Below are positions 8,651 through 27,650 of a DNA stretch of 49,350 nt, one piece after another. The position numbers and the translations under genes were made by a program. Every line of letters starts with the position of its first letter. Positions within the stretch are counted from its first letter, which is position 1. The stretch lies in sequence record DRR378314_99; one strand, written 5' to 3'. The notes beneath the pieces are model-generated. The model made no database searches and had not been told where the DNA came from. It saw only the letters and a program-made list of their open reading frames with translations.

Positions 8651-8656
8651 GTTGTA

Positions 8657-9655: not shown

Positions 9656-9761
9656 GGTCCGCTCTCCTCTGTTTTTGTTGCGACAGGTTGTCCCGCGCAA
9701 TCCTTTTCCTTGCGGCCATTATCCGCAAGAATAGTTCTTTGCAACCTTTCGGTCGACGGCG

Positions 9762-10990: not shown

Positions 10991-11045
10991 CGAAATTCCT
11001 TTTCACCGGGCAGATCATCATTTGGTACAGGCTGGAAGCCGCCGA

Positions 11046-11828
11046 TTAAACAGCGGCATCCATGTATTCTTCGCCGGTCTTGGCGCCGGTGATATAGGAC
11101 ACGACATCCTCACCGGTAAAATTCTCATTCTTGATGTCGAGATTGGCGCAGATGCGGCCACGACGGAACACGATAATGCGATCGACCAGATCAAAGACCT
11201 GCCGCATGTTGTGGCTGACTAGGATCAGAGGTTCGCCCGCTTCCTTGAGGGTGCGGATGATGTTCTCGACTTGCGCCGTTTCCTGAACACCCAACGCGGC
11301 GGTCGGTTCGTCCATGATGGTCAGTTTCGACGCAAAAGTCGCTGTCCGGGCAATTGCCACACATTGGCGCTGGCCACCCGACATGTTGCGGATGGAATTC
11401 CTGATATTCGGGATTTTTACCCCAGTCTTTTCAAGACCCGCCATCGTTGCATCGCGCATAGCTTTATAGTCCAGAAACCTGAACGGACCCAACCAATCAT
11501 ATTTGGTTATTTCGCGGCCCAGGAACAGGTTATCGGGAACGTTCAATTCGTCAGCGAGGGCCAACGTCTGGAACACTGTTTCAATTCCGGCTTCACGTGC
11601 ATCGAGCGGGCCGGTGAAATTCACCTCCTGTCCGTCGAAGAAAACCTGACCGCTGGTTTTCTGCTCCACGCCCGTGATCTGACGAACAAATGTCGATTTA
11701 CCGGCGCCGTTGTCCCCCATAACTGCAATATGTTCGCCTTTTCGTAGCGTCACGTTCGCATCGTTCAGGGCATGAACACCACCATAGTGTTTGGTCAGGC
11801 CTTTTGTTTCGAGAATGATATCGCTCAT
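11046..11828 (-). CDS. Sugar ABC transporter ATP-binding protein (single domain)
   Basis: Walker A GDNGAGKS, signature MSGGQRQ and Walker B IMDEPT. Confidence 0.93.
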   Translation of the reverse strand: MSDIILETKGLTKHYGGVHALNDANVTLRKGEHIAVMGDNGAGKSTFVRQITGVEQKTSGQVFFDGQEVNFTGPLDAREAGIETVFQTLALADELNVPDNLFLGREITKYDWLGPFRFLDYKAMRDATMAGLEKTGVKIPNIRNSIRNMSGGQRQCVAIARTATFASKLTIMDEPTAALGVQETAQVENIIRTLKEAGEPLILVSHNMRQVFDLVDRIIVFRRGRICANLDIKNENFTGEDVVSYITGAKTGEEYMDAAV

Positions 11829-11844
11829 TTTCTAATACTCCTGC

Positions 11845-12927
11845 TCAAGCGCGATTCTTTTGTCGGTACTGGTCAAGAACCACCGCCGCAATAATGATGC
11901 CACCCATGGCCATGAGTTGGTACGAGCCATCCAGTTTGACGAACGTAAAGCCCGAGCGAATGACGCCAAGTACCATTGCTCCAAGCACAGTACCAATGAT
12001 CGAACCGCGACCACCGGTTAGGCTGATGCCGCCGATTACGGCCATCGCAATGGCGAACAGTTCATAGAACTCACCCATACCAGCCTGCGCGGTTGACGCT
12101 TTGGAGCTGAGGACAATCCCTGCAAACGCTGCGAGCATCGAAGCGATCATATAGACCTTGACCTTATGGCGTTTGACGTCAATTCCCGACATCCTCGCGG
12201 CATCTTCGTTCGAACCGATCGCATACGTGTGTTTGCCATAAAGTGTGCGTGTCATGATCACGTGGAAAACCGCCGCCAAGATCAAAAACCAGACGACCGG
12301 CATCATCCCCGACCCGATAAATGCATAGGATTTAGTCGGGAAGGAAATTGGGTTACCACTTGACCACCACAGCGCGATTCCACGGCAGACAAGGAACATG
12401 CCCAATGTCGCGATAAACGGTGGAATGCGCAGGTGGGCAATGAAGACACCGTTGATGAACCCGATAAATGCACCGAATGCGAGACCGACGATGATCGGAA
12501 TGAGTACTGGAAGGTCCATGGCCCAGAGGCCAAAAAGCGCTTTCGGGTTCGGATTTCCGTTGACCAGTTCGGTTTGCGCAAAACTCATCGCGATCATTGC
12601 TGTCGCGGCAACCAAGGGGCCTGAACTAAGGTCGATGCCAGCAGTGATAATCACCTGAGTTACGCCAAGGGCGATAATTCCGATAATAGCGACTTGCAAA
12701 ATGATGATCTGCAGTCTGGCAACGTTAAACATGCCGAATACGCCGTCGAATCGGTCTTTGCTATCGAAGAGAAAACTCTGCCCATTCATGTAGGGCAGCA
12801 CCTGCCCCAAAATTTCGAATATTGCGATAATAATGAAAAGCGCAAAAAGCACATTCATCTCACTGGGCCAAGATCTTTTGCTCTTGTCGAAGGTTAGACC
12901 GCCAGTGCCATGGCTGGTATCAGACAT
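11845..12927 (-). CDS. Sugar ABC transporter permease (RbsC type)
   Basis: Motifs GIDLS, IPPFIATLG, YAIGSNEDAARMSGI and IGGISLTGG; many transmembrane segments. Confidence 0.93.
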   Translation of the reverse strand: MSDTSHGTGGLTFDKSKRSWPSEMNVLFALFIIIAIFEILGQVLPYMNGQSFLFDSKDRFDGVFGMFNVARLQIIILQVAIIGIIALGVTQVIITAGIDLSSGPLVAATAMIAMSFAQTELVNGNPNPKALFGLWAMDLPVLIPIIVGLAFGAFIGFINGVFIAHLRIPPFIATLGMFLVCRGIALWWSSGNPISFPTKSYAFIGSGMMPVVWFLILAAVFHVIMTRTLYGKHTYAIGSNEDAARMSGIDVKRHKVKVYMIASMLAAFAGIVLSSKASTAQAGMGEFYELFAIAMAVIGGISLTGGRGSIIGTVLGAMVLGVIRSGFTFVKLDGSYQLMAMGGIIIAAVVLDQYRQKNRA

Positions 12928-13011
12928 TTATTAAGGCTCCCGTTAGCGCTTTTAAAGTTGGGAAGGCGCGCATGGCGCCGCCCCGTAATGTTTAGAAGCA
13001 GTTGCTTCGAA

Positions 13012-13950
13012 TTAGTTCTTTGAAAGAAACTCATCCATGTTTGCAGGCGTAACCAGCTTGAATGGGATGTAAACTTTCTGATCAACAGTCTCACCTGCAA
13101 CCAGTTTCAGTGCTGTGTTGACTGATCCGGCACCCTGACCAAACGCGTCCTGGAATACAGTCACGTCATAGTCACCGGCTTGCATTGACAACAGCGCGTC
13201 TTGGCTGGCGTCAACACCGCCAACCTGTACGTCGGCCATATCCATGCCCGCAGCTTTCATAGCCTGGATCGCGCCAATCGCCATTTCGTCATTGTTCGCG
13301 AGAACAAAATCAAATGGCTCCCCAGCTGACATCCAATTGGTCATAAGGTCTTGTGCTTCATCGCGGGACCAGTTTGCGGTCTGCTCGTCGATGATGGTCA
13401 TGAAACTACACATGTCCATGCCGATAACGTCATAGACGTCCTTAGTCCGCTGAACGGCGGCCTGGTTGGAGAGCTGACCATTCATCAGGTAGCCACGAGC
13501 GCCGCCGGCTTTGCCGTCTGCCCGAAGGTTGTTACAGACTTGGAAAGCCGACAATGTGCCGGATTCGATTTCGTTCGAGGCCACGAAAGCTTGTGTCGGC
13601 GGCAATTCGTTTACGTTGTCGGGTTCGCGGTTCACGAAGACCAGCGGCACGTTGCCGGCTGCCTCGGTGATTGCGGCCCCGGCCGAGGTATCAACGATGT
13701 TCACAATGATCGCGTCAACGCCGGATGCAACGAAGTTCTTAACCTGATCGATTTGCTTGGCCAGATCGTCTGTTGCATCTTCCATTTGAAGGCTGACACC
13801 GTCCAGGCTCGCTGCGTGCTCGGTCATACCGTTGCGCATAACTGTCAGCCAGTTATCGTCGAACCTCGAAATCGTCGCACCGATTTCCTGTGCCATCGCG
13901 GTCGTGGACATCAGAGCCGTCAGTCCGAGTGCTACAAGAGACTTTTTCAT
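13012..13950 (-). CDS. Sugar ABC transporter periplasmic binding protein (inositol/rhizopine-binding type)
   Basis: Signal peptide; motifs RFDDNW, VNREP, NWSRD, ANNDEMAIGA and TVFQD. Confidence 0.92.
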   Translation of the reverse strand: MKKSLVALGLTALMSTTAMAQEIGATISRFDDNWLTVMRNGMTEHAASLDGVSLQMEDATDDLAKQIDQVKNFVASGVDAIIVNIVDTSAGAAITEAAGNVPLVFVNREPDNVNELPPTQAFVASNEIESGTLSAFQVCNNLRADGKAGGARGYLMNGQLSNQAAVQRTKDVYDVIGMDMCSFMTIIDEQTANWSRDEAQDLMTNWMSAGEPFDFVLANNDEMAIGAIQAMKAAGMDMADVQVGGVDASQDALLSMQAGDYDVTVFQDAFGQGAGSVNTALKLVAGETVDQKVYIPFKLVTPANMDEFLSKN

Positions 13951-14037
13951 GAGTTTCCTCCCAGAATTGGTGCCGGCACACCGATAATTTTGTCGCCGGA
14001 CCCCCGGATAGGGGGCAATGAAATCATCGAACGCCCA

Positions 14038-14856
14038 CTACGCAGCCCTAGCCTGCAAGCGGGTTTCGATGAATTGAATTGACCGCGAAAGCGCTGCTTT
14101 CGGATGGGTGATGTCGTGAATTTCGGGGGCGAAGACCTCGAATGAGATAGGCCCGACATACCCTTGCGCCAGCAGCTGTTGTAGCTGTGTGATGTTACCA
14201 ATCCGATCGTTGGCATCCACCAGCACCCGGTGTGCATCCTGCATTTGATCATTGTCCGGACCGGGATCGGTCACGCCTGACACATGAATGATACCTGTGC
14301 GCTCGGCGAACAGGTCGGCTTCACCTGACAGTGAGTGGTGGAACGTATCATGCACCAGTTTGAACGTGTCGCCGCCGTCCACAGCGTCAATTGCAGACAC
14401 AGCTTCGGATTTGAGACGCATACCGCAGCTTGCGAACCCCAGCGGTTCAACCAGCCCAGTCAGCCCGTGTTCGTTTAGCATTGGCTTCAATGCGCGCAGG
14501 GCTGTTTGCAGATCATTGCGACGCTCGGCCTTGCCCAGCCGCCGCCCGTCGTTGCGCGGGATCAGGGCGATAGCCTCAGCCCCGCAGGCAGCGGCTGTTT
14601 CCATCAGCACCTGCGCTTCGATTTCGCGCGCGTCTGACCAGTCGTTGAACATTTTAACCTCGGCCAGCGCCAGAATGCGCACACCTTTTTCGCTAGCCAA
14701 ATCCATTGCCGCAGAAGGTGAAAGGCCATCAAACAGGAGGCTCCCAAGGTCATTGCGGACCTCCACACCGATACACCCAAGGCTGGCTGCCATATCCAGC
14801 AGCGCAGGCCAGGATCTGTGTCTCACGGTCATGTGGTTTAATGCAAACTGCACCAA
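14038..14856 (-). CDS. Xylose-isomerase-like TIM barrel protein (IolI-like inosose isomerase)
   Basis: Motifs FALNH, EVRNDL, VEPLGF, DTFHH, HVSG and SFE; GGAGG RBS. The start may be 14853. Confidence 0.78.
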   Translation of the reverse strand: MVQFALNHMTVRHRSWPALLDMAASLGCIGVEVRNDLGSLLFDGLSPSAAMDLASEKGVRILALAEVKMFNDWSDAREIEAQVLMETAAACGAEAIALIPRNDGRRLGKAERRNDLQTALRALKPMLNEHGLTGLVEPLGFASCGMRLKSEAVSAIDAVDGGDTFKLVHDTFHHSLSGEADLFAERTGIIHVSGVTDPGPDNDQMQDAHRVLVDANDRIGNITQLQQLLAQGYVGPISFEVFAPEIHDITHPKAALSRSIQFIETRLQARAA

Positions 14857-14944: not shown

Positions 14945-14968
14945 TTTATTGCAACCGGTTGCAATAAA
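14945..14968. promoter_or_regulatory. 24 bp perfect palindrome TTTATTGCAACCGGTTGCAATAAA, probable LacI operator
   Basis: Same core as 5376-5391; lies upstream of the iolI-ABC-iolG-lacI operon. Confidence 0.82.
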
Positions 14969-15112
14969 AATATTAAGATCAAGTGGGCTTTTGTCGCCAT
15001 CGTGCACCTGAACCGATAAAAAACTCAGCAAGGTCCGGTTTTCGGAATTGGACTGCAATTCTATCGTAGGCGGCATTTTCTGTGCAATATTTGCGTAATT
15101 ATCGCAATGATA

Positions 15113-15126
15113 GCAATGATCATTGC
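15113..15126. promoter_or_regulatory. Palindrome GCAATGATCATTGC (GCAA-N6-TTGC), candidate RpiR autoregulatory site
   Basis: Perfect 14 bp palindrome about 30 bp upstream of the RpiR start; the same GCAA-N6-TTGC pattern occurs at 18857-18870. Confidence 0.5.
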
Positions 15127-15157
15127 ATGGTCACGCCGAAAAGGAAACAAGCAAGAT

Positions 15158-16024
15158 ATGACAACCCAATTTCCGCCCCGAAAATACGAAGACCTCACGC
15201 GTATCATCCACGAGCGTCACGCGGGCATGAGCAAGGGGTATCAGAAGATCGCACTCTATTTGACGCAGAATCCCAATGACGTGGCGGTGAAGTCGCTGAA
15301 TGCCATCGCACGGGACAGCGGCGTACACGCCTCCAGCTTTGTGCGCTTTGCCCAATCTCTGGGGTTCGAAGGTTTCAAGGAAGTGCAGACCTTGTTTCAG
15401 GACAAGCTGACCACCGCTGCGCCGGGGTTCGAGGCGCGCAAGAAAGCTTTGGAAGAAGATCTCATGGCACGTTCCGGGGCAGGGGCCGAAACCCCGCTGT
15501 CGGAATTGGTTGTGCGCGATATTGCTGTGCTTGAGGGGCTTCTGACCACCGTCAGCGAAGCCGAGTTAAAGTCCGCGGCGCGGCTGTTGCATAACGCATC
15601 CACGGTTTACGTGATCGGTCAGTTGCGTTCCGCTCCGGTGGCGGAACTCTTCCGCTATGTACTCACGATGCTGGGTAAGAAAACAGTTTTGCTGGATTCC
15701 AGCGGTGGGCTGGCCACTCATGTGGCGCGTACCATTGCGCGGGGGGATGTTCTCTTGGCGGTGTCGTTCCGGTTCTACGCCAATGAGGTGGTGAATATCG
15801 TCGAAGAGGCGGCGCGCAACGATGTGCCGATTATCGGCATCTCGGATTCATCCCTGTCGCCGCTGGCAAAATGCTCGGACCCGCTGTTCGTGGTGCCCGA
15901 GCATGAATATACATTCTCACGTTCATTAGCGGCGCCGATGTGTCTAGCGCAGGCGATCATGTTGTCACTTGCGGATCTGCAACAGGGTGAAGACCCGCGC
16001 ATTCCGACGGTAACGACCGAATAG
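15158..16024 (+). CDS. RpiR/MurR-family regulator (IolR-like)
   Basis: HTH VHASSFVRFAQSLGFEGF, SIS domain SFRFYA, and FSRSLAAPMCL. Start placed at ATG 15158. Confidence 0.9.
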   Translation: MTTQFPPRKYEDLTRIIHERHAGMSKGYQKIALYLTQNPNDVAVKSLNAIARDSGVHASSFVRFAQSLGFEGFKEVQTLFQDKLTTAAPGFEARKKALEEDLMARSGAGAETPLSELVVRDIAVLEGLLTTVSEAELKSAARLLHNASTVYVIGQLRSAPVAELFRYVLTMLGKKTVLLDSSGGLATHVARTIARGDVLLAVSFRFYANEVVNIVEEAARNDVPIIGISDSSLSPLAKCSDPLFVVPEHEYTFSRSLAAPMCLAQAIMLSLADLQQGEDPRIPTVTTE

Positions 16025-16037
16025 TCCACGCCGCCTC

Positions 16038-16940
16038 TCAACCCTTGCCAACCTCATAGCCCGCCGCCGCCATCACTCGCAGCAACTCTTTGTGACCTTT
16101 TTTGGCCATATCCAACGGTGGGTTGGTGACCGGGTCTTGTTCAGCCTCGACCACAAACCAGCCCTCATAACCAACTGAGGCCAGTCGTTTCACAATGATC
16201 TCAAAGTCAAGAGAGCCATCGCCGGGCACGGTAAAGGCGCCCTTGACAACCGCATTCAGAAAACTCTCTTTCGAGCGGTCCAGGCCATTGATGACATCCA
16301 TGCGCACGTCTTTGGTGTGGACATGGTTGATCCGCCCGTGATGATTGTCGATCACCCGCAGCACATCGCCGCCGGCAAAGGCCATATGTCCTGCGTCAAA
16401 CAACAACGGCAAAGCTTCACCCGAATTGCTCATGAGCAAGTCCAGCTCGGCCTCGGTCTCAATTGGCGCGGCCATGTGGTGGTGATAGGATAGGGGCATG
16501 CCCTCATCGGCGCACCATTCGGCAAAGGCGGTCAGCTTGCGGCCATAGACCTTGATCTGGTCCTCGTCTAAACGCAGCTTGGTCGACAGCGGCGCCTTGG
16601 GGTTGCCCTGAATGGTGCCCGCTGTTTCACCATAAACAATGCAAGGCGCACCGGTGGCAATGAACAGCGCCATCTGTTCATCAATCCTCGCCTTTTCGGC
16701 CTCTAGGTCTCCCTCAAGCAATAGACCCGAGAACCAGCCGCCACAGACCTGAATGCCATACTGACACAAGGCCGGGCAGAGGACATCCGGGTCCATCGGA
16801 AACCGGCGTCCGGTCTCCATTCCGGTATAGCCCGCGACGCTGGCCTGCCGCAGGCACTCCTCAAGCGAGACATCATCGCTGAGCTCTTCAAGATCGTCAT
16901 TCCACCATGCTATAGGCGCGATTCCAAGTTTTGCCTTCAT
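16038..16940 (-). CDS. iolE: myo-inosose-2 dehydratase
   Basis: Motifs GIAPIAWWNDD, YHHHM, DAGH, HVHTKD, FTVPGDG and VEAEQDP. Confidence 0.92.
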   Translation of the reverse strand: MKAKLGIAPIAWWNDDLEELSDDVSLEECLRQASVAGYTGMETGRRFPMDPDVLCPALCQYGIQVCGGWFSGLLLEGDLEAEKARIDEQMALFIATGAPCIVYGETAGTIQGNPKAPLSTKLRLDEDQIKVYGRKLTAFAEWCADEGMPLSYHHHMAAPIETEAELDLLMSNSGEALPLLFDAGHMAFAGGDVLRVIDNHHGRINHVHTKDVRMDVINGLDRSKESFLNAVVKGAFTVPGDGSLDFEIIVKRLASVGYEGWFVVEAEQDPVTNPPLDMAKKGHKELLRVMAAAGYEVGKG

Positions 16941-16943
16941 GGG

Positions 16944-18791
16944 TTAGACTCCATTTCGTTGTTTAGCGCGAATGTCGTCGTGATCCTTGCGGGCTGCAAC
17001 TACTTCTTTGCGGTCTGAGACCTCGGGCACGCCCACGTCCCAAGCCGCATCGCCGGGAGTCCACGAGAATGCATCTGACGCCAGCGTAAGAACCGTGGTC
17101 CGGTCATTGGCCTGCGCCCATTTCATCGCTTCGTCAAGTTCTCCGAGCGTTTCGACACGACGCGCCAGCGCGCCCATCGATTCGGCGTGTTTGGCAAAGT
17201 CAACCGAGAAGGGTTCTTTGACGCACGCATCCTTGATCAGGTTGTTGAATGACTTGCCGCCCTTGTAGTTTTGCAACCGGTTGATGATGGCAAAGCCGCC
17301 ATTGTCGGGGATCACCACAATCATTTTGTGTCCCGACAGAACCGATGAGTAGATGTCAGAGTTCATCATCATATAAGTACCGTCCCCGATCATCACGATT
17401 GGGGTGCGGGTGTCATCGGCCATGGCAGCCCCCCAAGCGGCGGGGATTTCATAGCCCATGCAGGAGAACCCGAATTCGGTGTCTACAGTGTTGGGGGTCT
17501 TGACCCGCCAACCCTTGTTCACCTCGCCCGGAGGCCCACCTGCAGCGGTGACGATCAGATCACGCTCGCCCGCATTGTCATGCAGAATTTTGACCACCTG
17601 CGCATAGGTCGGCAGCCGAGCGTTTGTCGGCTTTTGCAGTTCGTCCACCAGCGCGTTCCATTCGGCCATCTCGGCGCGGCCTTTGTTCATCCATGCCGGA
17701 TCAGCGGCCCAGTCGCCAAGGTCCGCGTCCATTTCCCTCATAGTTTCCAGCGCATCGCCCACCACACCAATTGCGCGATGTTTCACCGCGTCAAATCGTG
17801 CGGTGTTGACCGAGATGAACTGGGCGTCTTGGGCAAAACAGGTCCACGATCCTGTGGTGAAATCCTGAAGTCGCGTGCCAATGGCAAGAATCACGTCGGC
17901 CTCGGCGGCCATGGCATTGGCCGAAGACGAACCGGTCACGCCGATGGGCCCGACATTGACCGGGTGATCATGCACAATGCTGCCCTTGCCTGCGATGGTC
18001 TCGCAGATCGGGATGCCGCGGCGCTGTGCAATATCCGCCACCAACTCTTCGGCCATGGAATAACGCACGCCACCACCGGAAATGATCAGCGGGCGTATGG
18101 CCGATTTCAATGCTGCAAGCGCGCGGGCCAATTGCACCACATCTGGGCGCGGGCGTGGGATGTGATGAACTGTGGGTTCAAAGAACGCTTCCGGATAATC
18201 AAACGCAATCTCTTGTGTGTCCTGACACAGGCCAATGAACGCGGGGCCACAATCCGCTGGATCCAGCATCGCGGCAATCGCCTGCGGCATCGAGGAAATG
18301 ATCTGCTCGGGGTGGGTGATGCGATCCCAATAGCGGGTCACTGCCTTGAAGCTTTCGTTCACTGTAGTGGTCGGGCTGCTGAAGTGCTCAACCTGTTGCA
18401 GCACCGGGTCAGGACGACGGTTCGAAAATGTATCGCCGCTGATCAGCAATACCGGAAGGCGGTTGGAATGTGCCACACCTGCTGCGGTCACCATGTTGGT
18501 GGCACCGGGTCCTACCGAAGAGGTGGCGATCATCAGTTGGCGACGACGCTTGGCCTTGGCGAAGCCGATGGCGGCCAACGCCATGGATTGTTCGTTCTGG
18601 CCGCGCCATGTGGGCAGGATGTCTTGCACACCCTCAAGCGCTTGCGCAAAGCAGGTGACATTGCCATGGCCAAAAATCCCGAAGGCACCGGCAAACAACG
18701 GTACACGTTCGCCGTCAATCTCGGTGAACTGGTTGCACAAGTAGCGCACCAGAGCTTGTGCCATTGTCAGACGAATGGTTCCGTCAGCCAT
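16944..18791 (-). CDS. iolD: Trihydroxycyclohexanedione acylhydrolase (ThDP-dependent), copy 2
   Basis: Motifs TIRLTMAQA, GIFGHGNV, GQNEQSM, EFGFSCMGYEI and GDGTYMM; GGAGG RBS. Confidence 0.93.
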   Translation of the reverse strand: MADGTIRLTMAQALVRYLCNQFTEIDGERVPLFAGAFGIFGHGNVTCFAQALEGVQDILPTWRGQNEQSMALAAIGFAKAKRRRQLMIATSSVGPGATNMVTAAGVAHSNRLPVLLISGDTFSNRRPDPVLQQVEHFSSPTTTVNESFKAVTRYWDRITHPEQIISSMPQAIAAMLDPADCGPAFIGLCQDTQEIAFDYPEAFFEPTVHHIPRPRPDVVQLARALAALKSAIRPLIISGGGVRYSMAEELVADIAQRRGIPICETIAGKGSIVHDHPVNVGPIGVTGSSSANAMAAEADVILAIGTRLQDFTTGSWTCFAQDAQFISVNTARFDAVKHRAIGVVGDALETMREMDADLGDWAADPAWMNKGRAEMAEWNALVDELQKPTNARLPTYAQVVKILHDNAGERDLIVTAAGGPPGEVNKGWRVKTPNTVDTEFGFSCMGYEIPAAWGAAMADDTRTPIVMIGDGTYMMMNSDIYSSVLSGHKMIVVIPDNGGFAIINRLQNYKGGKSFNNLIKDACVKEPFSVDFAKHAESMGALARRVETLGELDEAMKWAQANDRTTVLTLASDAFSWTPGDAAWDVGVPEVSDRKEVVAARKDHDDIRAKQRNGV

Positions 18792-18827
18792 AGGGCGTCC
18801 TCCATTGGGTTTGAATCAGTTGATTGG

Positions 18828-18870
18828 GAAACATTTATTGACAAGTGATATTTTTAGCAACAACTATTGC
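18828..18870. promoter_or_regulatory. Divergent promoter with TTGACA (-35) and candidate RpiR boxes
   Basis: TTGACA at 18838-18843; GCAA-CAACTA-TTGC at 18857-18870; a degenerate GAAA-CATTTA-TTGA at 18828-18841. Confidence 0.5.
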
Positions 18871-18939
18871 AAGCATGGTGGTTTTGCAGTTTGCGACCGC
18901 ACACAGTCAACGCTCATAACGATCAAAGGCGATTCCATC

Positions 18940-20376
18940 ATGTATGATTCATTCGGACTTTTTATTAACGGCCAGTGGCGGCGCGCGTCCGACGGCGGCA
19001 CCTCAGACGTGCGCAGCCCAGTGACTGAGCAACCGATCGGCACCGCTCCTGCGGCAACTGTGGTCGACACCGAGGCTGCGGTTGTTGCTGCCGAAGGCGG
19101 CCTGAAGGCTTGGAGCGCCACGGCTGCGTTCACACGCGCCGATGCCCTCCATGCGGCTGCCGATGAAATGATCCACCGCACCTCCGAGGCGGGCAAATTG
19201 ATTGCCACCGAGACTGGCAAACCCATCGCTCAGGCTGAACGCGAGTGGGGTCTAGCAACGGATCAGTTTCGCTGGTACGCTGAAGAGGCCCGCCGCATCT
19301 ATGGCCGTATTGTTGAATCCCGCGTGCCCGGTGGCCGCTTTGAGGTGAGCCGCGAACCGGTTGGTGTTGTTGGTGCATTCACCGCTTGGAATTTCCCGGC
19401 CTTTCTGGTCGCGCGTAAACTGGCTCCGGCGCTGGCGGCGGGCTGTTCCGTTGTGCTGCGCCCGTCCTCACAAACACCAGGCACCGCGATGCTGATTGTG
19501 GATTGCCTGCGCGTTGGCAACCTGCCGGACGGAACTGTTAACCTTGTGGTGGGCGCGACCTCAAACACTTATGCTCCTGTTATGGCGGCAAAATCTGTTC
19601 GCAAAGTGTCTCTGACAGGATCGACCCGCGTGGGCCAGCAGATGATTGCGGATGCCGCCGCCACCGTGAAAAAAGTCTCGATGGAGCTCGGCGGGAACGC
19701 CCCGGCCATCATCTTTGACGACGCCGATATGGAAATGGCGCTGGATGTTTCCGTGGCAACTAAATTTGCCAATTGCGGTCAGGTCTGCGTGACGCCCGAT
19801 CGTTTCTTTGTGCATGACAGCCTACATGACGCCTTTGTCGAAGGCTTTGTGACACGCGCGAAGGCGCTGGTTCTGGGGGACGGGCTGAATCCGAACGTAC
19901 AGATGGGGCCGCTGATCAATCAGGGCGCGCTGAACACCGCTTTGGCAGCGATTGAAGACGCCGTTGCAGGGGGTGCAAAAATCGCCACCGGCGGTCAGCG
20001 TGACGCGGCGCAAAACGCCGGTCACTTTCTTGAGCCCACGGTTCTGACCAACGTATCAGATGATGCCCGCGTCTTTGCCGAGGAAAACTTTGGTCCCATC
20101 GCTGCAATAACCAGCTTTAGCGATGAAGAAGAGGTCATTGACCGCGCCAATGCCTCGGACATGGGGTTGTCTGCCTATTCATTCACGGCTTGTCCCGAAC
20201 GCGCCCGCCGCGTGGTGGCGGGGCTAAAATCCGGCATGGTCGGCATCAATTCCTATGCGTTGGCCGCATCCGAAGTGCCCTTTGGTGGCACCAATTTTTC
20301 AGGGTTAGGGCGCGAAGGCGGGCTGGAAGGGATCGAGGATTACCTCGACACCAAATTGGCGCAAATCGTTTTTTGA
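18940..20376 (+). CDS. NAD(P)-dependent aldehyde dehydrogenase, succinate-semialdehyde dehydrogenase (GabD)-like
   Basis: Motifs AWNFP, TGST, MELGG, NCGQVC, EENFGP and PFGG. Start at ATG 18940. Confidence 0.9.
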   Translation: MYDSFGLFINGQWRRASDGGTSDVRSPVTEQPIGTAPAATVVDTEAAVVAAEGGLKAWSATAAFTRADALHAAADEMIHRTSEAGKLIATETGKPIAQAEREWGLATDQFRWYAEEARRIYGRIVESRVPGGRFEVSREPVGVVGAFTAWNFPAFLVARKLAPALAAGCSVVLRPSSQTPGTAMLIVDCLRVGNLPDGTVNLVVGATSNTYAPVMAAKSVRKVSLTGSTRVGQQMIADAAATVKKVSMELGGNAPAIIFDDADMEMALDVSVATKFANCGQVCVTPDRFFVHDSLHDAFVEGFVTRAKALVLGDGLNPNVQMGPLINQGALNTALAAIEDAVAGGAKIATGGQRDAAQNAGHFLEPTVLTNVSDDARVFAEENFGPIAAITSFSDEEEVIDRANASDMGLSAYSFTACPERARRVVAGLKSGMVGINSYALAASEVPFGGTNFSGLGREGGLEGIEDYLDTKLAQIVF

Positions 20377-20386
20377 GGGGACGACG

Positions 20387-21199
20387 ATGATCAAGAACAA
20401 CATCAAGACACTTTGGTCCAAGGATCAGCCAGCGCTGAATGGCTGGCTTTCAATCGGTAATGCGTTCACCGCCGAGATCATGGCCGCTCAGGACTATGAT
20501 AGCATCACCATCGACATGCAGCATGGAGCGCTGGACTATTCTACCGCGCTGCCGATGATGCAGGCGATGCGCGCCAGCGGCAAAACCCTGATGGCGCGGG
20601 TGCCTTGGAACGATCCGGGCATCATCATGAAGGCGATGGATGCGGGCGCCTACGGCATCATCTGCCCAATGATCAATTCTCGCGCCGAGGCCGAGGCGCT
20701 GGTCTCCGCCATGCGTTACCCACCGCACGGCACACGCAGTTTTGGCCCTACGCGGGTGAACTTTGCCGCGGGGGCAGGCTATGCCAACGAAGCCAACGAC
20801 GAAATGTTGGTCATCGCGATGATCGAAACTGCTGAAGCCCTGGCCAACCTCGAAGATATCGTGACCACTCCGGGTCTGGATGCTGTCTATATTGGGCCTG
20901 CTGACCTGACGCTTGGAGTGATGCAGGGCACGTTGCCCCCCGGTTTTGACCGGCAAGAACCGGAGATGATCGAAGTCACTCAACGTATTCTTAAGGCCGC
21001 CAAAGATGCAGGAATACGGGCGGGCATCCATTGTGGCACGCCAGAATACGCCAGCCATGCGATAGGTTGGGGCTTTGACCTGACTACCATTTCCGGGGAC
21101 AGCCGCTTGTTGGCCGCTGCGGCTGAGGCAAGCGTTGGCAAGGCACGTGAATTGCTGGGAGCAGGTAGTGACCAACCCGCTAGTGATGGGGGCTATTGA
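20387..21199 (+). CDS. HpcH/HpaI class II pyruvate aldolase family protein
   Basis: Motifs DMQHG, ARVP, DAGAYGIICPM, YPPHGTRS, MIET and GPADL. Confidence 0.9.
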   Translation: MIKNNIKTLWSKDQPALNGWLSIGNAFTAEIMAAQDYDSITIDMQHGALDYSTALPMMQAMRASGKTLMARVPWNDPGIIMKAMDAGAYGIICPMINSRAEAEALVSAMRYPPHGTRSFGPTRVNFAAGAGYANEANDEMLVIAMIETAEALANLEDIVTTPGLDAVYIGPADLTLGVMQGTLPPGFDRQEPEMIEVTQRILKAAKDAGIRAGIHCGTPEYASHAIGWGFDLTTISGDSRLLAAAAEASVGKARELLGAGSDQPASDGGY

Positions 21200-22170
21200 T
21201 GCCACATATTCTGCTTGCCGGTAAGTTGCACTCCAGCGCCATTGTTTTGTTAGACTCAACCGAGGGCGTGACCTATGACCATGTCGAAGAGATCAACGTC
21301 GAGAGCTACGCGCCGCTGATGCGCAAGGCGGATGGTCTGGTCATCCGTACGCAGCCTTTGACGGCTGAAACCTTGGCGCTGGCCCCCAACCTGCAAATTG
21401 TATCACGCCACGGTGTCGGCTATGATGCTGTGGATGTTGAGGCCGTCAGTGCGCGTGGTCTTCCACTTGCCATCGTCGGCGATGTGAACTCACGTGCCGT
21501 GGCCGAGCACACGATGACCCTTCTGCTGGCGGCGTCGCGTCGCTTGCTGCGTTACGATGCGGCCTGCCGGGGCGGCCAGCCATGGGGTTATCGTAATTCA
21601 CTTGAGGCGCAAGAAGTGTACGGCAAGACGCTGCTGATCGTTGGCTATGGTCGGATCGGGCGTCAACTAGGGCGGCTGGCAGCCGCGTTCGGTATTTCCG
21701 TAGCCGTCCATGATCCTTACCTGCCAGCCGATGCCGATCTGACCGGCGTGACCCGTTGCGATGATCTGCCCGCCGCTCTTGCGCAGGCGGATTTTATTTC
21801 ATTGCATGTGCCAGCCACCGGCAAGCCTTTGCTTGGGGCGAAGGAAATTGCCACCCTAAAACCCAGCGCGGTAGTGTTGAATGCGGCGCGTGGTGGGCTG
21901 ATTGATGACGCGGCTCTGGCTCTGGCTTTGCGTGAAAACCGCCTGCTGGGTGCAGGTATCGACGTCTTTGCCGAAGAACCCCCGGCACCCGATCATGCCT
22001 ATGCAACCGTAGATACGGCGATCTTGACCCCTCATTCGGCGAGCATGTCGTTGGAGTGCGCCGAACGTATGGCCTTGTCTTCGGTGCAGAATGTGCTGGA
22101 TTATTTCAACGGACAATTGAATACGGATCTTGTTGTCAATCGGGATGCACTAATGGAACACGCGAAATGA
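21199..22170 (+). CDS. D-2-hydroxyacid dehydrogenase (SerA-like catalytic and NAD domains)
   Basis: Motifs RHGVGYD, AVAEH, GYGRIG, NAARGG, DVFAEEP and TPHSA; translationally coupled at both ends. Confidence 0.9.
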   Translation: MPHILLAGKLHSSAIVLLDSTEGVTYDHVEEINVESYAPLMRKADGLVIRTQPLTAETLALAPNLQIVSRHGVGYDAVDVEAVSARGLPLAIVGDVNSRAVAEHTMTLLLAASRRLLRYDAACRGGQPWGYRNSLEAQEVYGKTLLIVGYGRIGRQLGRLAAAFGISVAVHDPYLPADADLTGVTRCDDLPAALAQADFISLHVPATGKPLLGAKEIATLKPSAVVLNAARGGLIDDAALALALRENRLLGAGIDVFAEEPPAPDHAYATVDTAILTPHSASMSLECAERMALSSVQNVLDYFNGQLNTDLVVNRDALMEHAK

Positions 22171-23285
22171 AGGTAGGACTGATCGGTTCCGGTTTCATGG
22201 GGATGACACACACTTTTGGGTTCGCCACAGCCGAGCGGGTGTTCGACCTGCCTGTATCGTTTGAAATGGAGGTTCTGGCCGACATCACTATGGAGCAGGC
22301 CGAGGCCGCGCGTAAAAATCTTGGGTTTTCCCGCGCGACCGATAATTGGCGTGACCTGATTGATGATCCCTCGATTGATATCGTTGACATCACGGCCCCC
22401 AATGCGCTGCACAAGGAAATAGCATTGGCAGCGATTGCGGCAGGGAAACACGTCTATTGCGAAAAGCCTCTGGCGCCGCTGGCGGTTGATGCGCTTGAAA
22501 TGGCTGAGGCCGCCGAAGCCGCTGGCGTGAAGACCCAAGTCGGTTTTAACTATCTGATGAACCCGATGTTCAACGTCGCACGCGAGATGATTGCCGCTGG
22601 TGAGTTGGGCGCGATTTATTCCTATCGCGGCATTCATGCCGAGGAATACATGGCCGACCCCAACGGCCCGTGGACTTTTCGTCACGATCCAGCAGGCGGT
22701 GGCGCGCTGGCCGACATCGGAAGCCATGCGCTGGCCACGGCAGAGTTTCTGCTTGGCCCCATCGCGCGGGTCATGGGGGATTGCCGGACCCTGATCCCAG
22801 AGCGGCGGGACGCAAATGGTAACATGCGCAATGTTGAGGTCGATGACGTGACCCATGCCTTTATCGAGTTCGACAGTGGTATGTCCGGCTCCATTGAGGC
22901 CAATTGGGTTGCCTCAGGGCGCACGATGCAACATGATTTTGAGGTCTATGGCTCCAAGGGTGGGCTGCGGTTTAGTCAGGAACGTTTTAACGAATTGCAT
23001 TTCTTCAACGCCGGGGACCCCGATGGACGTCGCGGTTTCCGCCGGATAGAGGCCGCGCCTTCCCATGCGCCCTACGGGCGGTTCTGTGTTGCGCCTGGCC
23101 ACCAGATTGGCTTTAATGATCTCAAGGCGATTGAGATCAAGGGTTATGCCGACGCCATCGCCAATCTCGGACCCGAGCCGTTCAATTTCCGCGCGGGCTA
23201 TCGTATTCAGTCACTGGTTGAATCGATCCAGCGCTCCTCTGCGACCCGAGATTGGGTTGCCACGCCCTGTCCGCAAAGTTGTTAA
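22167..23285 (+). CDS. Gfo/Idh/MocA oxidoreductase, inositol dehydrogenase-like
   Basis: Motifs GSGFMG, CEKP, GFNY, DIGSH and GHQIGFNDLK. Start at ATG 22167, overlapping the upstream stop. Confidence 0.87.
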   Translation: MKVGLIGSGFMGMTHTFGFATAERVFDLPVSFEMEVLADITMEQAEAARKNLGFSRATDNWRDLIDDPSIDIVDITAPNALHKEIALAAIAAGKHVYCEKPLAPLAVDALEMAEAAEAAGVKTQVGFNYLMNPMFNVAREMIAAGELGAIYSYRGIHAEEYMADPNGPWTFRHDPAGGGALADIGSHALATAEFLLGPIARVMGDCRTLIPERRDANGNMRNVEVDDVTHAFIEFDSGMSGSIEANWVASGRTMQHDFEVYGSKGGLRFSQERFNELHFFNAGDPDGRRGFRRIEAAPSHAPYGRFCVAPGHQIGFNDLKAIEIKGYADAIANLGPEPFNFRAGYRIQSLVESIQRSSATRDWVATPCPQSC

Positions 23286-23803: not shown

Positions 23804-24152
23804 GATGATACGCTTTCCTGTTTCATAACTGCTTAAAACGGACGTTGTGCAGTCTGAATACGCAACGTTTCTAAACCCTGATAGCCCCTAATTTGTTTTT
23901 CATCAGGAGTTTATTGGTTATTCATTCTCCAAAAGGTTCTAAGCTCAATCATGCGGGATATTACCGACTTCGAGCAGGATCACCCGCCCATAAACCGGCG
24001 TGTCCGGCGCCTGCGATGCTGACGCTTCGAATCCACGCCGTTGTAGAGGTGTTTAGATGCCAGAGGGGCAGTGAACCAGCCTCATTCCTGCCGTCCATTT
24101 ACTTCACGAGCACTATTAGCAATGTCGCAATACGGAACAAATATTGCACGTT

Positions 24153-25283
24153 TCAGGACGAGTGGAGTGCGTTCTCAATACTGCTCGTGTTTAAATTTCC
24201 CAGAAGAGGCTTTTCGTTCTTCAAATGTCGCTCAACAAGTTGATTTTGCTGTTTCCCATGTGGAATGTATCGTGCCGGTTCAATGGGGTAAGACAACTCT
24301 CCTACTTCCGGAAAAATTGTTTGTATTTCTTCCCAAGCCTCCGAGCTCAACGACTTCATGGCCACCGGGCCGGTTAACAAGCTTTCGGTAGGAGCACCTT
24401 CGGCGTGGATAATTTCATGATGATCAAACAAAAGGTGAAAATACTCTATATCTTTAACCGATACATCTACATAAATTCCCGGCAGTAATGTTAGTTTGAT
24501 TGCCGGTACCAAAACTTCTGATTTTCCAAACATCCGCTCGGTTATTCTTGACCGAACCAACATACGGTGCTGGCGCGAAACAAGCAGGTCACGCTCTGGC
24601 AGCCCACGTCCCAAAGACTTTGCTGTAATTCGGATTGGCTGGAGTTTAGAGTTGGTAGAAAGCTCATTAAAGTCCAGTTTTCGGTGGCCTATCCAGCGAA
24701 TCGGAAGCCGGACCCCCTTTGAATTAAGAACTTCGTCGCCGGTATTCAATTCGCATATTGGAATGTCTCCATGCGCTGTTAGTATTCTGGTTCCGCCGGC
24801 AAAACAGGTTACGAATTCAGTGGCATCAATGGGCTGTTGACCTGAACTGCCCGGACCTTCAACCGCAGAGATTATTTCCAAGGCAACACCGCGCGGCGGG
24901 AAGTTACCTACGAAAGCAAGTCCTTCAATCGTACCAAAAGCCGGCGATGAATTGACAATGTTTACTCCGACAACCTGATAGGTCTCTCCCGTACTATTGT
25001 CGCGAAGTACAAATTGATATTCTGCTTCTATGCGGGTGTTGTCTGCAAATAGAGTTCCGTCCAGTGTCTGTGCGCCGTCCAGCCGTTGATTGCCGTCATT
25101 ATCATCAAAGCTGGTGTCGGACCCACTGTCCGAAATATCAAGGGATGTAAGGGCACCAGCTCCCAGAGTCATGAACTCACCGACTAGGTGGGAGCCATCG
25201 CCCTGAGTAACGCCGTCCAGCCCGATACCGCCGGTTAGGGTAACCTCGCTTTCCGCCAAGACCGCTAGAGTGTAATTGGCCAA
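24153..25283 (-). CDS. Hint-domain (bacterial intein-like, Hint_2) protein
   Basis: TCFAGGTRILT..G..GDEV, VSRQHRML, YFHLLFDHHEII and AEGAPTES; TTG start behind an AGGAG RBS. Confidence 0.88.
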   Translation of the reverse strand: MANYTLAVLAESEVTLTGGIGLDGVTQGDGSHLVGEFMTLGAGALTSLDISDSGSDTSFDDNDGNQRLDGAQTLDGTLFADNTRIEAEYQFVLRDNSTGETYQVVGVNIVNSSPAFGTIEGLAFVGNFPPRGVALEIISAVEGPGSSGQQPIDATEFVTCFAGGTRILTAHGDIPICELNTGDEVLNSKGVRLPIRWIGHRKLDFNELSTNSKLQPIRITAKSLGRGLPERDLLVSRQHRMLVRSRITERMFGKSEVLVPAIKLTLLPGIYVDVSVKDIEYFHLLFDHHEIIHAEGAPTESLLTGPVAMKSLSSEAWEEIQTIFPEVGELSYPIEPARYIPHGKQQNQLVERHLKNEKPLLGNLNTSSIENALHSS

Positions 25284-25488
25284 CTAGCATACTCCTGTCA
25301 TTTATCACGGGCCGTGCAATGTTGGTTACATGGACCACCCAACCGGATGATGGTTATGTTCATATTGCCCGGCTCAATTCCCCAATATTTTCCGACAAGG
25401 TTTGAGGCAAATATAATTAAAACAAATCGAATTGGCTATGTCATGACTCAAACACTAGCGACGGTATTTCTCAGGCGTTTAGAGGATA

Positions 25489-25676
25489 CCATGTTTGCTG
25501 GGGTTTGAGGAGTACTTCGGCGACTGTGACGAATTTGCGAACGACTGCTATGATGATCGCTTTGCGCGGTTTGGCGGCGTCACGCAAACAGTCTTCAAAG
25601 ATATTAAAAATCTGGATTGTGATGGCTTGCGACGAGAGGGGCTTGGAACATGGCGTGCCGTATCTATCGCCGGAGC
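25489..25676 (-). pseudogene. IS110-family transposase C-terminal remnant
   Basis: Minus strand reads RR*IRHAMFQAPLVASHHNPD, then after a frameshift DCLRDAAKPRKAIIIAVVRKFVTVAEVLLKPQQTW. This matches the IS110 C-terminal pattern (ALxAxxxNP...KPxKxxxxAxxRK). Confidence 0.72.
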
Positions 25677-25767
25677 GAGCAAAACTTGGTGGTTATGCAG
25701 CGAGCTTTGAAATAGTTAGCCTACCGTCCAGAACAGCGGCCCTTGTGATAACAACGCGATGTGCATC

Positions 25768-26445
25768 TTACTGAGACCAACTCATGCATCGCCGTTTGCC
25801 CATTCGAGCGTTACCGGTATCGGCAACACAACCTTCTGTACGGGATGACGAAACCGCGAGGTGGTTTCGATGCAGATGACCGTAATCCACTAGCGCTTTA
25901 AGATTGCAGGAAAGGTAGGTGTAGAGCTCGTCGCGCCGGGCTTTGACACGTTTGGCGGTTGCTTTTAGGTCTTTGGTTTCGGCGCGAAAAGGATTGCGAG
26001 CAAAGGTGAGAATCTTGAGAATTGTCCATGCGATCATCACTTTGTCGTGCCACGGAGACCACCGCAACGTTTCTGCCAGTTGTTTAAAGAGTTGCGGGAG
26101 GCCCTCAAAGCCCCATGCTTGCAGAAGTCCTCGCACCGCGTTTTGGATATGTTGAACGTGCATCGATATGTGCCATCAATCTAGAATGTGGATGATGGAC
26201 CCTTGAACAGCCCGAAGCACCAGATTTGGCAGGGCTGGTTCGGCGTCTGAAATCACAGTCTCTTGGCTATTGCCGTCCCAGCCTTGCGGGATCAGGTCTT
26301 TCCTGAGTTCGTTTGCGGGAGGCTTGGTTGCTTGCTGCACAAGTCCAATGCGGCGACTAGAATTGGACCCTCAACTTTTCCAATCACAACATCAAGGTCG
26401 CGCTTCTGGTGTTCTGGTCTACATCGGATATGTGTACGTACTGAA
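25768..26445 (-). pseudogene. ISKra4-family transposase remnant
   Basis: Fragments HIRCRPEHQKRDLDVVIGKVE, VISDAEPALPNLV, HILD*WHISM and LYTYL..N..ALVDYG...SSSRTEG..RMGKRRCMSWS, broken by stops and frameshifts. Confidence 0.75.
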
Positions 26446-26687
26446 AACTGTTTGAAATCGCTTTTGGATGACATGTAGCATTGTTATATAAACGAATTCC
26501 AGAAGCTGATATGATCGAAGCGATTGTGTTTTCTCAACCACCATAGTTCACATGGACATTGCATTTCTTGAGCAGCATTCACCCTAGTCGCCGCGTCGTT
26601 ATTTTTGTGGCGTGACTTTCTGTCAGAAATTCAAATACCTTTGTAGCAAGATGGGTTAAATGAGGCGCAAGGTTAGGAACGTTTCAA

Positions 26688-27650
26688 TTGGGGGAATACA
26701 AAAAACATTTCACCTTTTTGATTGAATCCGGCTTCACAATGCAGGCCTTTTCGTCGGCGGTTGAGGTTCTTCGACTTGCCCGAAAGCTCAATGCTGAATT
26801 CCCGTTCTCCTACTCCGTCGCCTCTCTCGACGACGAGGCCGTTGCCGCATCCAACGAGATAAAGGTCTTGCCAAATTGCAATGTTGATGAGCTTCCCAAA
26901 ATGTCCATCATCGTCATTGTCGCGGGCGCAGGGGCCGGAAATAAACCAAATCCGGAAATGTCTGCGCGCCTTCGACGTTGGACGCGCGCAGGTCATCCGA
27001 TCTGGGGAATTTCGTCCGGCGTCGTGCGACTGGCTCAGGCAGGCTTGGTCGATGACTGCTCGGTTGCGGCTCATTGGGAAGATATTCCTTATCTCAGAGT
27101 TGATCACCCAAGAGTGCAGCTTGCCACATCTCTTTATATTTTAGACAGCAAGCATCCGACCTGTTCGGGTGGTGGTGCTGCCGCTGACCTTATGATGAGT
27201 TTCATTGCACGGTCAGGTCCGAAGGACTTTGTAAAAGAGATTGCTGCGCGTCTGATGATCGACGGAGTTCGGGATGGGCGGATGAAGCAATCGCTTCCAG
27301 CAGAGCTGCGTTATGTGACGTCAAACAAGACTGTGTTTGCCGCCATCCGTTTGATGGAAAAGCATTTATTTGACGCGTTGTCTCTACAGGAAATTGCGGA
27401 AAACGTCGGTATATCTATGCGACAGCTGGAACGGCTGTTTCAGGACGCATTTTCAAAGACACCCAAAGTCGTTTATCTGGAATTGCGCCTTGATGAGGCG
27501 CGGCAGGAAATTCTGGCTGGTCGGCGCTCAATTCGCGACATTGCACTGGACTATGGATTTGAAGCGGCAAATTTCACGCAAGTCTATCGTCGGTGTTTCG
27601 GTGTTGTGCCTTCAGAAGATAAGGCGCCACCTGATCAAGCCATGTCGTAA
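26688..27650 (+). CDS. GlxA-family (DJ-1 domain plus AraC HTH) transcriptional regulator
   Basis: Motifs FSSAVEVLR, LAQAGL, AHWE, TCSGG and SMRQLERLF...LRLDEAR; TTG start. Confidence 0.88.
   Translation: MGEYKKHFTFLIESGFTMQAFSSAVEVLRLARKLNAEFPFSYSVASLDDEAVAASNEIKVLPNCNVDELPKMSIIVIVAGAGAGNKPNPEMSARLRRWTRAGHPIWGISSGVVRLAQAGLVDDCSVAAHWEDIPYLRVDHPRVQLATSLYILDSKHPTCSGGGAAADLMMSFIARSGPKDFVKEIAARLMIDGVRDGRMKQSLPAELRYVTSNKTVFAAIRLMEKHLFDALSLQEIAENVGISMRQLERLFQDAFSKTPKVVYLELRLDEARQEILAGRRSIRDIALDYGFEAANFTQVYRRCFGVVPSEDKAPPDQAMS

Follow-up and report, generated by a model that had tools for sequence, protein, structure and literature searches.

A second iolDE module beside an HpcH-family aldolase: a candidate oxidative branch of inositol catabolism

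What is the role of a second pair of iolD and iolE genes that lies beside genes for an aldolase and several dehydrogenases? This question is raised by positions 15158-23285 of a 49,350-nucleotide stretch of DNA from sequence record DRR378314_99 (the whole stretch is called the window below). An earlier note, made from the letters of the window, had proposed that this second iolDE module serves a non-phosphorylative pathway for cyclitols. We find that its gene set is well supported as a conserved functional unit, an answer carried by the identities of the genes, their conserved linkage, a separate clade of IolD proteins and a promoter-operator unit shared by the clusters. As to function, we consider the chances about even that it forms a branch of inositol catabolism with regulation of its own and a history of lateral transfer, in which oxidation and class-II aldol cleavage would take the place of the isomerase, kinase and phosphoaldolase steps.

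The proteins of the window were taken from the listing of open reading frames and scanned with Pfam and NCBIfam (release 20), and gene starts were set from the sequence. All seven genes named in the earlier note are present where it had placed them. The first (15158..16024, plus strand) encodes a 288-residue RpiR/MurR-family regulator with HTH_6 and SIS domains by Pfam, whose NCBIfam scores lie under every equivalog cut-off. Its reading frame opens at 15107, and the ATG at 15158 was chosen as the start because it fits the N-termini of the orthologs and keeps the operator, described below, upstream. On the minus strand lie the genes for IolE2, an inosose dehydratase (16038..16940; TIGR04379, 380.6 bits against a cut-off of 290), and IolD2, a thiamine diphosphate-dependent trihydroxycyclohexane-1,2-dione hydrolase of the aldolase-linked clade (16944..18791; TIGR04377, 810.7 bits against 715, with a match covering profile positions 1-615 of 616). 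A divergent control region of 148 bp (18792..18939) separates iolD2 from a plus-strand operon of four genes. These encode an aldehyde dehydrogenase (ALDH) resembling succinate-semialdehyde dehydrogenases (SSADH) (18940..20376; PF00171), an HpcH/HpaI class-II aldolase of the SwHKA-like subfamily (20387..21199; PF03328), a D-isomer-specific 2-hydroxyacid dehydrogenase (2HADH) of 323 residues (21199..22170; PF02826 and PF00389), and GFO2, a GFO/IDH/MocA oxidoreductase resembling scyllo-inositol dehydrogenase (22167..23285; Pfam). A longer ALDH reading frame, from 18775, would overlap iolD2; the ATG at 18940 was used since it gives 478 residues, the length in nearly all of the 120 relatives listed.

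The operon is tightly packed, with a gap of 10 nt between the ALDH and aldolase genes, an overlap of 1 nt between the aldolase stop codon and the 2HADH ATG, and an ATGA overlap of 4 nt between the 2HADH and GFO2 genes. All four of its products fall under every curated equivalog cut-off, NCBIfam release 20 holding no equivalog for any of them. The Pfam and NCBIfam scans detected no IolB, no IolC and no class-II FBP-type or DKGP aldolase (IolJ or DUF2090) within 15158-23285, which bears out the claim that the module has no isomerase, kinase or phospho-aldolase. IolB-like, IolC and phospho-aldolase genes are present at 753-3465, in an inositol-related cluster that adjoins the second module (cluster 1, 753-14856). 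The module had also been called self-contained; it has no transporter of its own, the nearby ABC transporter (11046-13950) belonging to cluster 1.

Fourteen relatives of the aldolase were aligned, and the alignment was used to fetch 80 loci, one per species-level genome, with flanks of up to 10 kb on each side, onto which the proteins of the window were mapped by tblastn. Genes of the IolD2/IolE2 type were found in 48 of the 80 aldolase loci, and a rough estimate of chance occurrence is ~1% (1-3 iolD copies per 4-7 Mb genome, within +/-10 kb of the aldolase). Within these 48 loci, 43 carry 2HADH, 31 carry the ALDH, and 23 have ALDH, 2HADH and GFO2 together; the neighbourhood of iolD, iolE, ALDH, HpcH and 2HADH genes that the earlier note had expected is thus indeed conserved. 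Over all 80 loci, an IolE2-type gene was detected in 40, RpiR relatives (48-64% identity) in 40, and an IolG-like gene, often immediately upstream of the ALDH gene, in 29, and IolB-like, IolC-like and IolJ-like matches occurred in 3, 4 and 1, respectively. Half of the 32 loci without IolD2/IolE2 genes have full or near-full flanks and zero partner genes, 2HADH included, while the remaining 16 either run into a contig end or retain some of the partners. Overall, 2HADH is present in 52 of the 80 loci (43 of these with IolD2/IolE2), and it accompanies the aldolase only in the inositol context. The hosts are Alpha- and Gammaproteobacteria, many of them from soil or the sea, with Rhizobium, Paracoccus, Cypionkella, Labrys, Amaricoccus and Hongsoonwoonella among them, the gammaproteobacterial members including Pseudomonas sp. 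TWI929, Pantoea rodasii and Spiribacter onubensis. The order of the genes is reshuffled while the set stays together, for example in L055 and L057, where the HpcH, 2HADH, IolD, IolE and GFO genes run head to tail on one strand, and this speaks for functional coupling rather than inherited adjacency.

Additional genes were seen in some of these loci. The Pseudopelagicola genome G011 contains two separate aldolase-linked modules (L039 and L102), in addition to one iolD of cluster-1 type and a canonical iolB. Three loci (L019, L035 and L063) share a PRK06198-type SDR next to the module (382-443 bits against 240), with scores like those of glucose-, fucose- and rhamnose-1-dehydrogenases, and an extra pair of TIM-barrel and GFO genes recurs in L019 and L078 (coordinates of the SDR and TIM-barrel/GFO neighbours: L019, 1643-4683; L063, 4790-5605; L035, 18873-19712; L078, 15220-17425). 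For the solute-binding proteins encoded in L035 and L001, a search against structures returned no match that was informative.

IolD2 of the window shares 64-83% identity with 44 aldolase-linked copies, 53-54% with cluster-1-type copies, and 39-51% with 16 copies that adjoin iolB and come from the same genomes. A tree from a quick IQ-TREE search, containing the 16 iolB-adjacent, 5 cluster-1-type and 44 aldolase-linked proteins and the copy from L097, separated the groups with SH-aLRT values of 100 (iolB-linked), 100 (cluster-1-type) and 93 (aldolase-linked). Since the L097 copy lies beside iolG, ALDH and HpcH genes, all 45 members of the third group are aldolase-linked. The aldolase-linked IolD proteins therefore appear, as far as this tree goes, as a distinct and old paralog clade. 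The Pseudomonas and Spiribacter proteins nest among alphaproteobacterial copies, indicating lateral transfer of the module.

The spacer between iolD2 and the ALDH gene contains TTGACA at 18838-18843 and, at 18856-18871, a palindrome, AGCAACAACTATTGCA, overlapping the probable -10 element of the rightward operon. We compared 40 homologous iolD2-proximal spacers, and found TGCAAT-N4-ATTGCA with at most two mismatches in 24 of them, the estimated chance being ~0.01 per spacer, and TTGACA beginning 18 nt ahead of the palindrome in 26. An operator-like palindrome with one mismatch to the same pattern, AGCAATGATCATTGCA, lies at 15112..15127, 31 nt upstream of the RpiR start codon, where it is likely to mediate autoregulation, and both module promoters in the window thus carry the pattern. 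The window-wide count of the palindrome (four matches) is not above that in shuffles, and the argument for an operator therefore rests on placement; a promoter and terminator scan of the window also gave nothing above shuffles. TTGACA and TGCAAT-N4-ATTGCA together constitute a promoter-operator unit common to several taxa, through which the RpiR protein is predicted to repress the divergent promoters. The experimentally defined IolR box is GGAA-N6-TTCC, according to the accessible part of PMC2597717. This canonical box has zero matches in the window, and it stands directly upstream of cluster genes in only three related loci (L048, L054 and L057), which links these three, at the least, with the classical inositol regulon.

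The aldolase matches PF03328 with 113.5 bits, which places it in the family. SwHKA is the closest solved structure (219.8 bits; HpaI gives 121.8 and GarL 113.5), and the scores lie under the equivalog cut-offs of HpaI (TIGR02311, 147.5 against 368.8), GarL (TIGR03239, 129.3 against 406.75) and RhmA (NF007521, 104 against 441). Residues H46, R71, E147 and D173 are identical in 81/81 relatives, and we take these, from work on HpaI and GarL, to be the metal ligands (Glu and Asp) and the catalytic residues (Arg and His). His215 is found in the window aldolase and in 80/81 relatives, in a column that holds Phe in SwHKA and Leu in E. coli GarL. SwHKA accepts hydroxypyruvate as a donor, a property that PMC10099721, in the part available, credits to the aromatic residue in place of the conserved Leu, which adjoins C3 of the donor. 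In three loci without iol genes (L041, L071 and L074, around 10001), aldolases of 58-61% identity are flanked by the genes of an MR/MLE dehydratase and an alpha/beta hydrolase; an epimerase/SDR-type gene is close by, and L041 and L071 have an ABC transporter upstream. That unlinked aldolases form a separate paralog clade was ruled out by a FastTree tree of the aldolases.

The ALDH shows the stretches ELGGNAP and CGQVC, presumably the catalytic Glu and Cys motifs of the family. Among solved structures it is nearest to SSADHs and to alpha-ketoglutarate semialdehyde dehydrogenase, and it scores under the cut-offs of both SSADH models (TIGR01780, 465.6 against 646.35; NF008415, 423.4 against 828). 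MmsA/IolA (TIGR01722) is not among the best 25 of the 38 families that it matched. We considered whether the ALDH could be the IolA missing from cluster 1, and this was ruled out as the protein is SSADH-like and not MmsA-like. MmsA itself, a CoA-acylating malonate-semialdehyde dehydrogenase, is encoded in three of the five fully annotated clusters (L001, L035 and L063; TIGR01722, 664-677 bits against 448.5) and is only 26-28% identical to the window ALDH. Its presence inside clusters supports malonate semialdehyde as a product, as the earlier note had supposed, and implies that the SSADH-like ALDH is not needed for the removal of this compound. In L006, of the Cypionkella lineage, the 376-bp spacer between iolD2 and the HpcH gene (within 5845-8102) retains the first residues of an ALDH, and its sister L011 has a clean spacer of 105 bp.

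The 2HADH contains both family domains (PF02826, 160.4 bits; PF00389, 83.1 bits), the NAD motif GYGRIG, and the stretches NAARGG, EEP and TPHSAS around the Arg, Glu and His. It lies under the cut-offs for phosphoglycerate dehydrogenase (PGDH; 228.5 against 454), glyoxylate reductase (180.9 against 455) and GhrB (145.9 against 492), and PGDH, glyoxylate reductases and McyI are its nearest structures. The substrates of these enzymes are D-2-hydroxy acids with a distal anionic group, and 2-ketogluconate reductases of the same family act on the same centre in gluconate. The chemistry that had been assigned to the aldolase and the 2HADH accordingly fits their nearest characterised relatives, the hydroxypyruvate-accepting SwHKA on the one hand and PGDH, glyoxylate reductase and McyI on the other. 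GFO2 reaches 116 bits with the IolG model TIGR04380, under its cut-off of 355, and its closest structure is the Paracoccus scyllo-inositol/L-glucose dehydrogenase 5ya8 (274 bits). The Paracoccus enzyme has a broad specificity and oxidises L-glucose, as the hemiacetal, in addition to scyllo-inositol (PMC5969746, accessible part). The operon-internal IolG proteins of related clusters pass TIGR04380, with 415 and 408 bits.

The route that we propose would begin with the formation of scyllo-inosose by an inositol dehydrogenase, here GFO2 and/or the IolG of cluster 1 and, in many relatives, the operon-internal IolG. IolE2 would dehydrate scyllo-inosose and IolD2 would open the ring to give 5-deoxy-D-glucuronate, which is the established product of the IolE/IolD family. 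The C1 aldehyde would then be oxidised to 5-deoxy-D-glucarate, by the ALDH where it is present (a proposed 5-deoxyglucuronate dehydrogenase), and 2HADH would oxidise the D-configured C2 hydroxyl of 5-deoxy-D-glucarate to a 2-oxo-3,4-dihydroxy dicarboxylate. Retro-aldol cleavage between C3 and C4 by the HpcH aldolase is predicted to yield hydroxypyruvate and malonate semialdehyde, the former going to glycerate and the latter to acetyl-CoA via MmsA/IolA. Such a pathway had been described as independent of ATP; this would be true up to the cleavage, beyond which hydroxypyruvate still needs reduction and glycerate kinase. Tentatively, we further suggest that rhizobia, roseobacters and some Gammaproteobacteria possess an undescribed second inositol route via 5-deoxy-D-glucarate and 2-dehydro-5-deoxy-D-glucarate; a bolder form of this suggestion would have paralogous modules serve different cyclitol stereoisomers, with IolD2 or a GFO protein making the dicarboxylate in operons without an ALDH.

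A number of observations weigh against this route. The chemical steps after IolD, the assignment of the dehydrogenases to steps and the inducer are all ones that we infer. The ALDH had been expected as a constant member of the set, but it is missing from 17 of the 48 IolD2/IolE2 clusters, and a search with the window ALDH (E <= 1e-120) returned no close ortholog in 15 of the 17 genomes that hold these clusters; the N-terminal piece in L006 is a deletion remnant of an ALDH lost in that lineage. Either the pathway therefore does not depend on aldehyde oxidation by this ALDH, or the step is performed by another enzyme; in these clusters a GFO protein or the recurrent SDR may take it over, failing which the scheme has to be revised. 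The oxidation of a 2-hydroxy acid with NAD is thermodynamically unfavourable and would have to be drawn forward by the cleavage, and 2HADH could be a hydroxypyruvate reductase instead. As for the aldolase, proteins of 58-67% identity with His215 occur in loci without iol genes, and iol-less and iol-linked aldolases are interspersed in the FastTree tree. The gene neighbourhood in L041, L071 and L074 looks like a typical 2-keto-3-deoxy sugar-acid context, and since His215 is kept in these dehydratase-containing clusters, it is not a marker of a hydroxypyruvate-specific enzyme. Finally, of the 48 host genomes, 42 encode a canonical IolB that passes the cut-off, and the module thus mostly supplements the canonical route and seldom stands alone. 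The six remaining genomes comprise three with only a sub-threshold IolB of cluster-1 type and three with none (one draft isolate and two metagenome-assembled genomes), and the idea that the module would be enriched in genomes lacking iolB or iolC did not hold up.

Two of the gammaproteobacterial hosts are informative in this respect. In Pseudomonas sp. TWI929 (L035/G009), IolG, IolE, IolD, ALDH, HpcH, 2HADH, MmsA, an OprB porin and an ABC transporter are encoded in one cluster, and in this genome IolB has no match (TIGR04378, PF04962), no IolC passes its cut-off, and there is only one IolD. Spiribacter onubensis has a single IolD/IolE pair of the aldolase-linked clade, flanked by ALDH-aldolase genes and by iolC-DUF2090/iolB, and because this pair lies between both lower branches, the ordinary intermediate plausibly feeds both.

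Would the same chemistry not act equally well on another cyclitol, such as an inositol stereoisomer or a deoxy- or methyl-inositol that the canonical enzymes cannot finish, as the earlier note had considered for methyl cyclitols? IolE2 and IolD2 would then give an epimeric or substituted 5-deoxy-hexuronate rejected by IolB, IolC and the phospho-aldolase, oxidation and class-II cleavage being less stereo-demanding. This agrees with the coexistence of the canonical pathway in those 42 genomes, with an old and separate IolD clade so distant from the iolB-adjacent copies (39-51% identity), with a regulator of its own and an operator unlike GGAA-N6-TTCC, and with the resemblance of GFO2 to a scyllo-inositol dehydrogenase of broad specificity (PMC5969746, accessible part); the two modules of the Pseudopelagicola species, beside a cluster-1-type set and canonical IolB, suggest a division of labour. 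However, IolE2 and IolD2 score above the equivalog cut-offs of the ordinary enzymes, as the operon-internal IolG does above that of myo-inositol dehydrogenase. Moreover, the one IolD/IolE pair of S. onubensis adjoins both branches, only the aldolase-linked IolD clade is represented in Pseudomonas sp. TWI929, and no demethylase, oxygenase or aminotransferase is conserved in the annotated clusters. A different cyclitol as substrate is in our judgement rather unlikely.

We regard as improbable a different division of roles, in which 5-deoxyglucuronate is oxidised as its lactol by a GFO protein or the SDR, an aldehyde released by the aldolase is the substrate of the ALDH, and 2HADH is a hydroxypyruvate reductase. 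It would account for the dispensability of the ALDH in 17 of the 48 clusters and for the minimal operons of L055 and L057, which consist of the HpcH, 2HADH, IolD, IolE and GFO genes only, and it is in line with glyoxylate/hydroxypyruvate reductases being among the best family matches of 2HADH, with the recurrence of a sugar-1-dehydrogenase-like SDR next to the cluster, and with the oxidation of both scyllo-inositol and the L-glucose hemiacetal by the enzyme of nearest structure to GFO2 (PMC5969746, accessible part). Yet a 2HADH that only reduces hydroxypyruvate would leave the minimal operons with no enzyme to produce the 2-oxo group, MmsA already takes malonate semialdehyde in three clusters, and 5-deoxyglucuronate, having no 5-OH, can form only a furanose lactol. 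It is highly improbable, in our view, that the operon serves to break down some unrelated sugar or sugar acid and has a spare iolDE pair as a chance neighbour, or merely scavenges 5-deoxyglucuronate, a reactive aldehyde, as a safety valve of the canonical pathway. The same aldolase subfamily does occur in sugar-acid clusters elsewhere, the window and 42 of the 48 host genomes encode canonical IolB/IolC, and all four operon proteins lie under every curated equivalog cut-off. Nevertheless, the linkage to IolD/IolE outlives rearrangement across two bacterial classes, single-strand operons included, the two divergent units and the regulator share one operator, the module occurs in one genome that lacks IolB altogether, and the window and the annotated loci contain no acid-sugar dehydratase in their clusters.

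The neighbouring cluster 1 encodes IolC (323.6 bits against 300), IolD1 (782.8 against 715) and IolG (424.6 against 355) above cut-off, and an IolB-like protein (143 bits against 205) and an IolE-like TIM barrel at 6487-7425 (172.5 against 290) below it. It also contains a class-II FBP-type aldolase gene, three GFO genes, a second TIM barrel, a LacI-type regulator (8657-9700) and the ABC transporter. The part at 753-8594 departs from the textbook type in that the FBP-type aldolase replaces DUF2090 and in having an extra GFO gene (5418-6521), a layout found again in L040 and L051. A perfect 16-bp palindrome, TTGCAACCGGTTGCAA, occurs twice in cluster 1, at 5376-5391 in the divergent spacer of iolD1 and the extra GFO gene, and at 14949-14964 upstream of the TIM-barrel/ABC/iolG operon, the latter copy being separated by only ~200 nt from the gene for the RpiR protein. 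With up to three mismatches allowed, this type of palindrome has 3 matches where 0.41 are expected, and it is probably the operator of the LacI-type regulator. On the other side, G+C content falls from ~0.58 in the module to 0.49-0.50 at 24000-28000, the dip starting just past the module, and a Hint-domain protein is encoded within it (24153-25283); the stretch may be the edge of an acquired segment. Further on lie two dimethylglycine-dehydrogenase-like genes with DAO and GCV_T domains (27822-30239, plus strand; 30977-33370, minus strand) and, in the region to 38171, genes for another regulator of the RpiR type and for a DUF3394-containing transporter of the TAXI/TRAP type.

Inositols are major carbon sources from plants, soil and algae, and surveys and rhizosphere studies link iol genes to root colonisation and host association. 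If an oxidative inositol branch ending in aldol cleavage exists in dozens of species, the genome-based prediction of inositol use would change, as relatives of the operon genes are at present automatically named succinate-semialdehyde dehydrogenase, 2,4-dihydroxyhept-2-ene-1,7-dioate aldolase and the like. It would also explain why many bacteria hold two or three iolD genes, and would give hydroxypyruvate-type HpcH aldolases, so far biocatalysts, a natural substrate and a first physiological role. The promoter-operator-regulator unit might serve as a cyclitol-responsive switch, if induction is confirmed.

The earlier note knew of no described pathway with this gene set, and we found none in the searchable open literature, outside which subscription journals and supplements lie. 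Within that literature, searches by name for 5-deoxy-D-glucarate and 2-dehydro-5-deoxy-D-glucarate return no paper, inositol with hydroxypyruvate, malonate semialdehyde and aldolase gives nothing, and the papers naming 5-deoxyglucuronate do not, by their titles, concern an oxidative branch. HpcH together with iolD or iolE was not found among the open-literature matches listed, and those for inositol and HpcH catabolism are unrelated by title and abstract. The accessible part of the GapMind paper (PMC9007349) treats only the DUF2090 aldolase, and the searchable part of an iol survey (PMC9430895) contains none of the phrases tried for this branch.

How, then, does the module compare with known systems? 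Its upper part is like that of the canonical myo-inositol pathway (IolG-IolE-IolD-IolB-IolC-IolJ-IolA of B. subtilis and the alphaproteobacterial iolR-iolCDEB), in that IolE2 and IolD2 pass the equivalogs, and malonate semialdehyde and MmsA are likely to be a common end. The alphaproteobacterial IolR is, like the module regulator, of the RpiR type (PMC2597717, accessible part). Unlike the canonical pathway, the module has no IolB, IolC or phospho-aldolase, a separate IolD clade and its own operator, and its proposed three-carbon product is hydroxypyruvate and not dihydroxyacetone phosphate. SwHKA of Sphingomonas wittichii RW1 (PDB 6r62 and variants) is the closest solved relative of the aldolase, and the conserved Leu is replaced in both, by Phe in SwHKA and by His in the window protein; in the available part of PMC10099721, SwHKA is treated as a biocatalyst, with no mention of a physiological substrate.

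The garPLRK-garD layout of E. coli was seen in a comparison locus. In the D-glucarate/galactarate pathway to which these genes belong (GarD/GudD, GarL, GarR and GarK), an HpcH-family aldolase splits a C6 dicarboxylic acid into two C3 units, one of which goes to glycerate. That pathway uses a dehydratase to form a 2-keto-3-deoxy acid, with pyruvate as the donor. The module has no acid-sugar dehydratase and would rely on a dehydrogenase, giving a 2-keto-3-hydroxy acid, and the identity of GarL to the window aldolase is no more than 26%. The pairing of an HpcH-family aldolase with an SSADH-type ALDH has a parallel in HpaI and SSADH of 4-hydroxyphenylacetate catabolism. In that pathway SSADH follows HpaI and acts on the aldolase product, whereas the module ALDH is proposed to act before the aldolase, and the window proteins do not reach the cut-offs of HpaI and SSADH. 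In Azoarcus, cyclohexane-1,2-dione hydrolase, a thiamine diphosphate enzyme that opens an alicyclic 1,2-dione, reportedly also oxidises the oxo-acid to a dicarboxylate; it is a precedent solely for the idea that IolD2 might make the dicarboxylate in ALDH-less clusters. Taken together, the upper half of the module belongs to the known IolD/IolE families, and the lower half would be an oxidative, sugar-acid-like route of the GarL type in which a dehydrogenase stands in for the dehydratase and hydroxypyruvate, presumably, for pyruvate.

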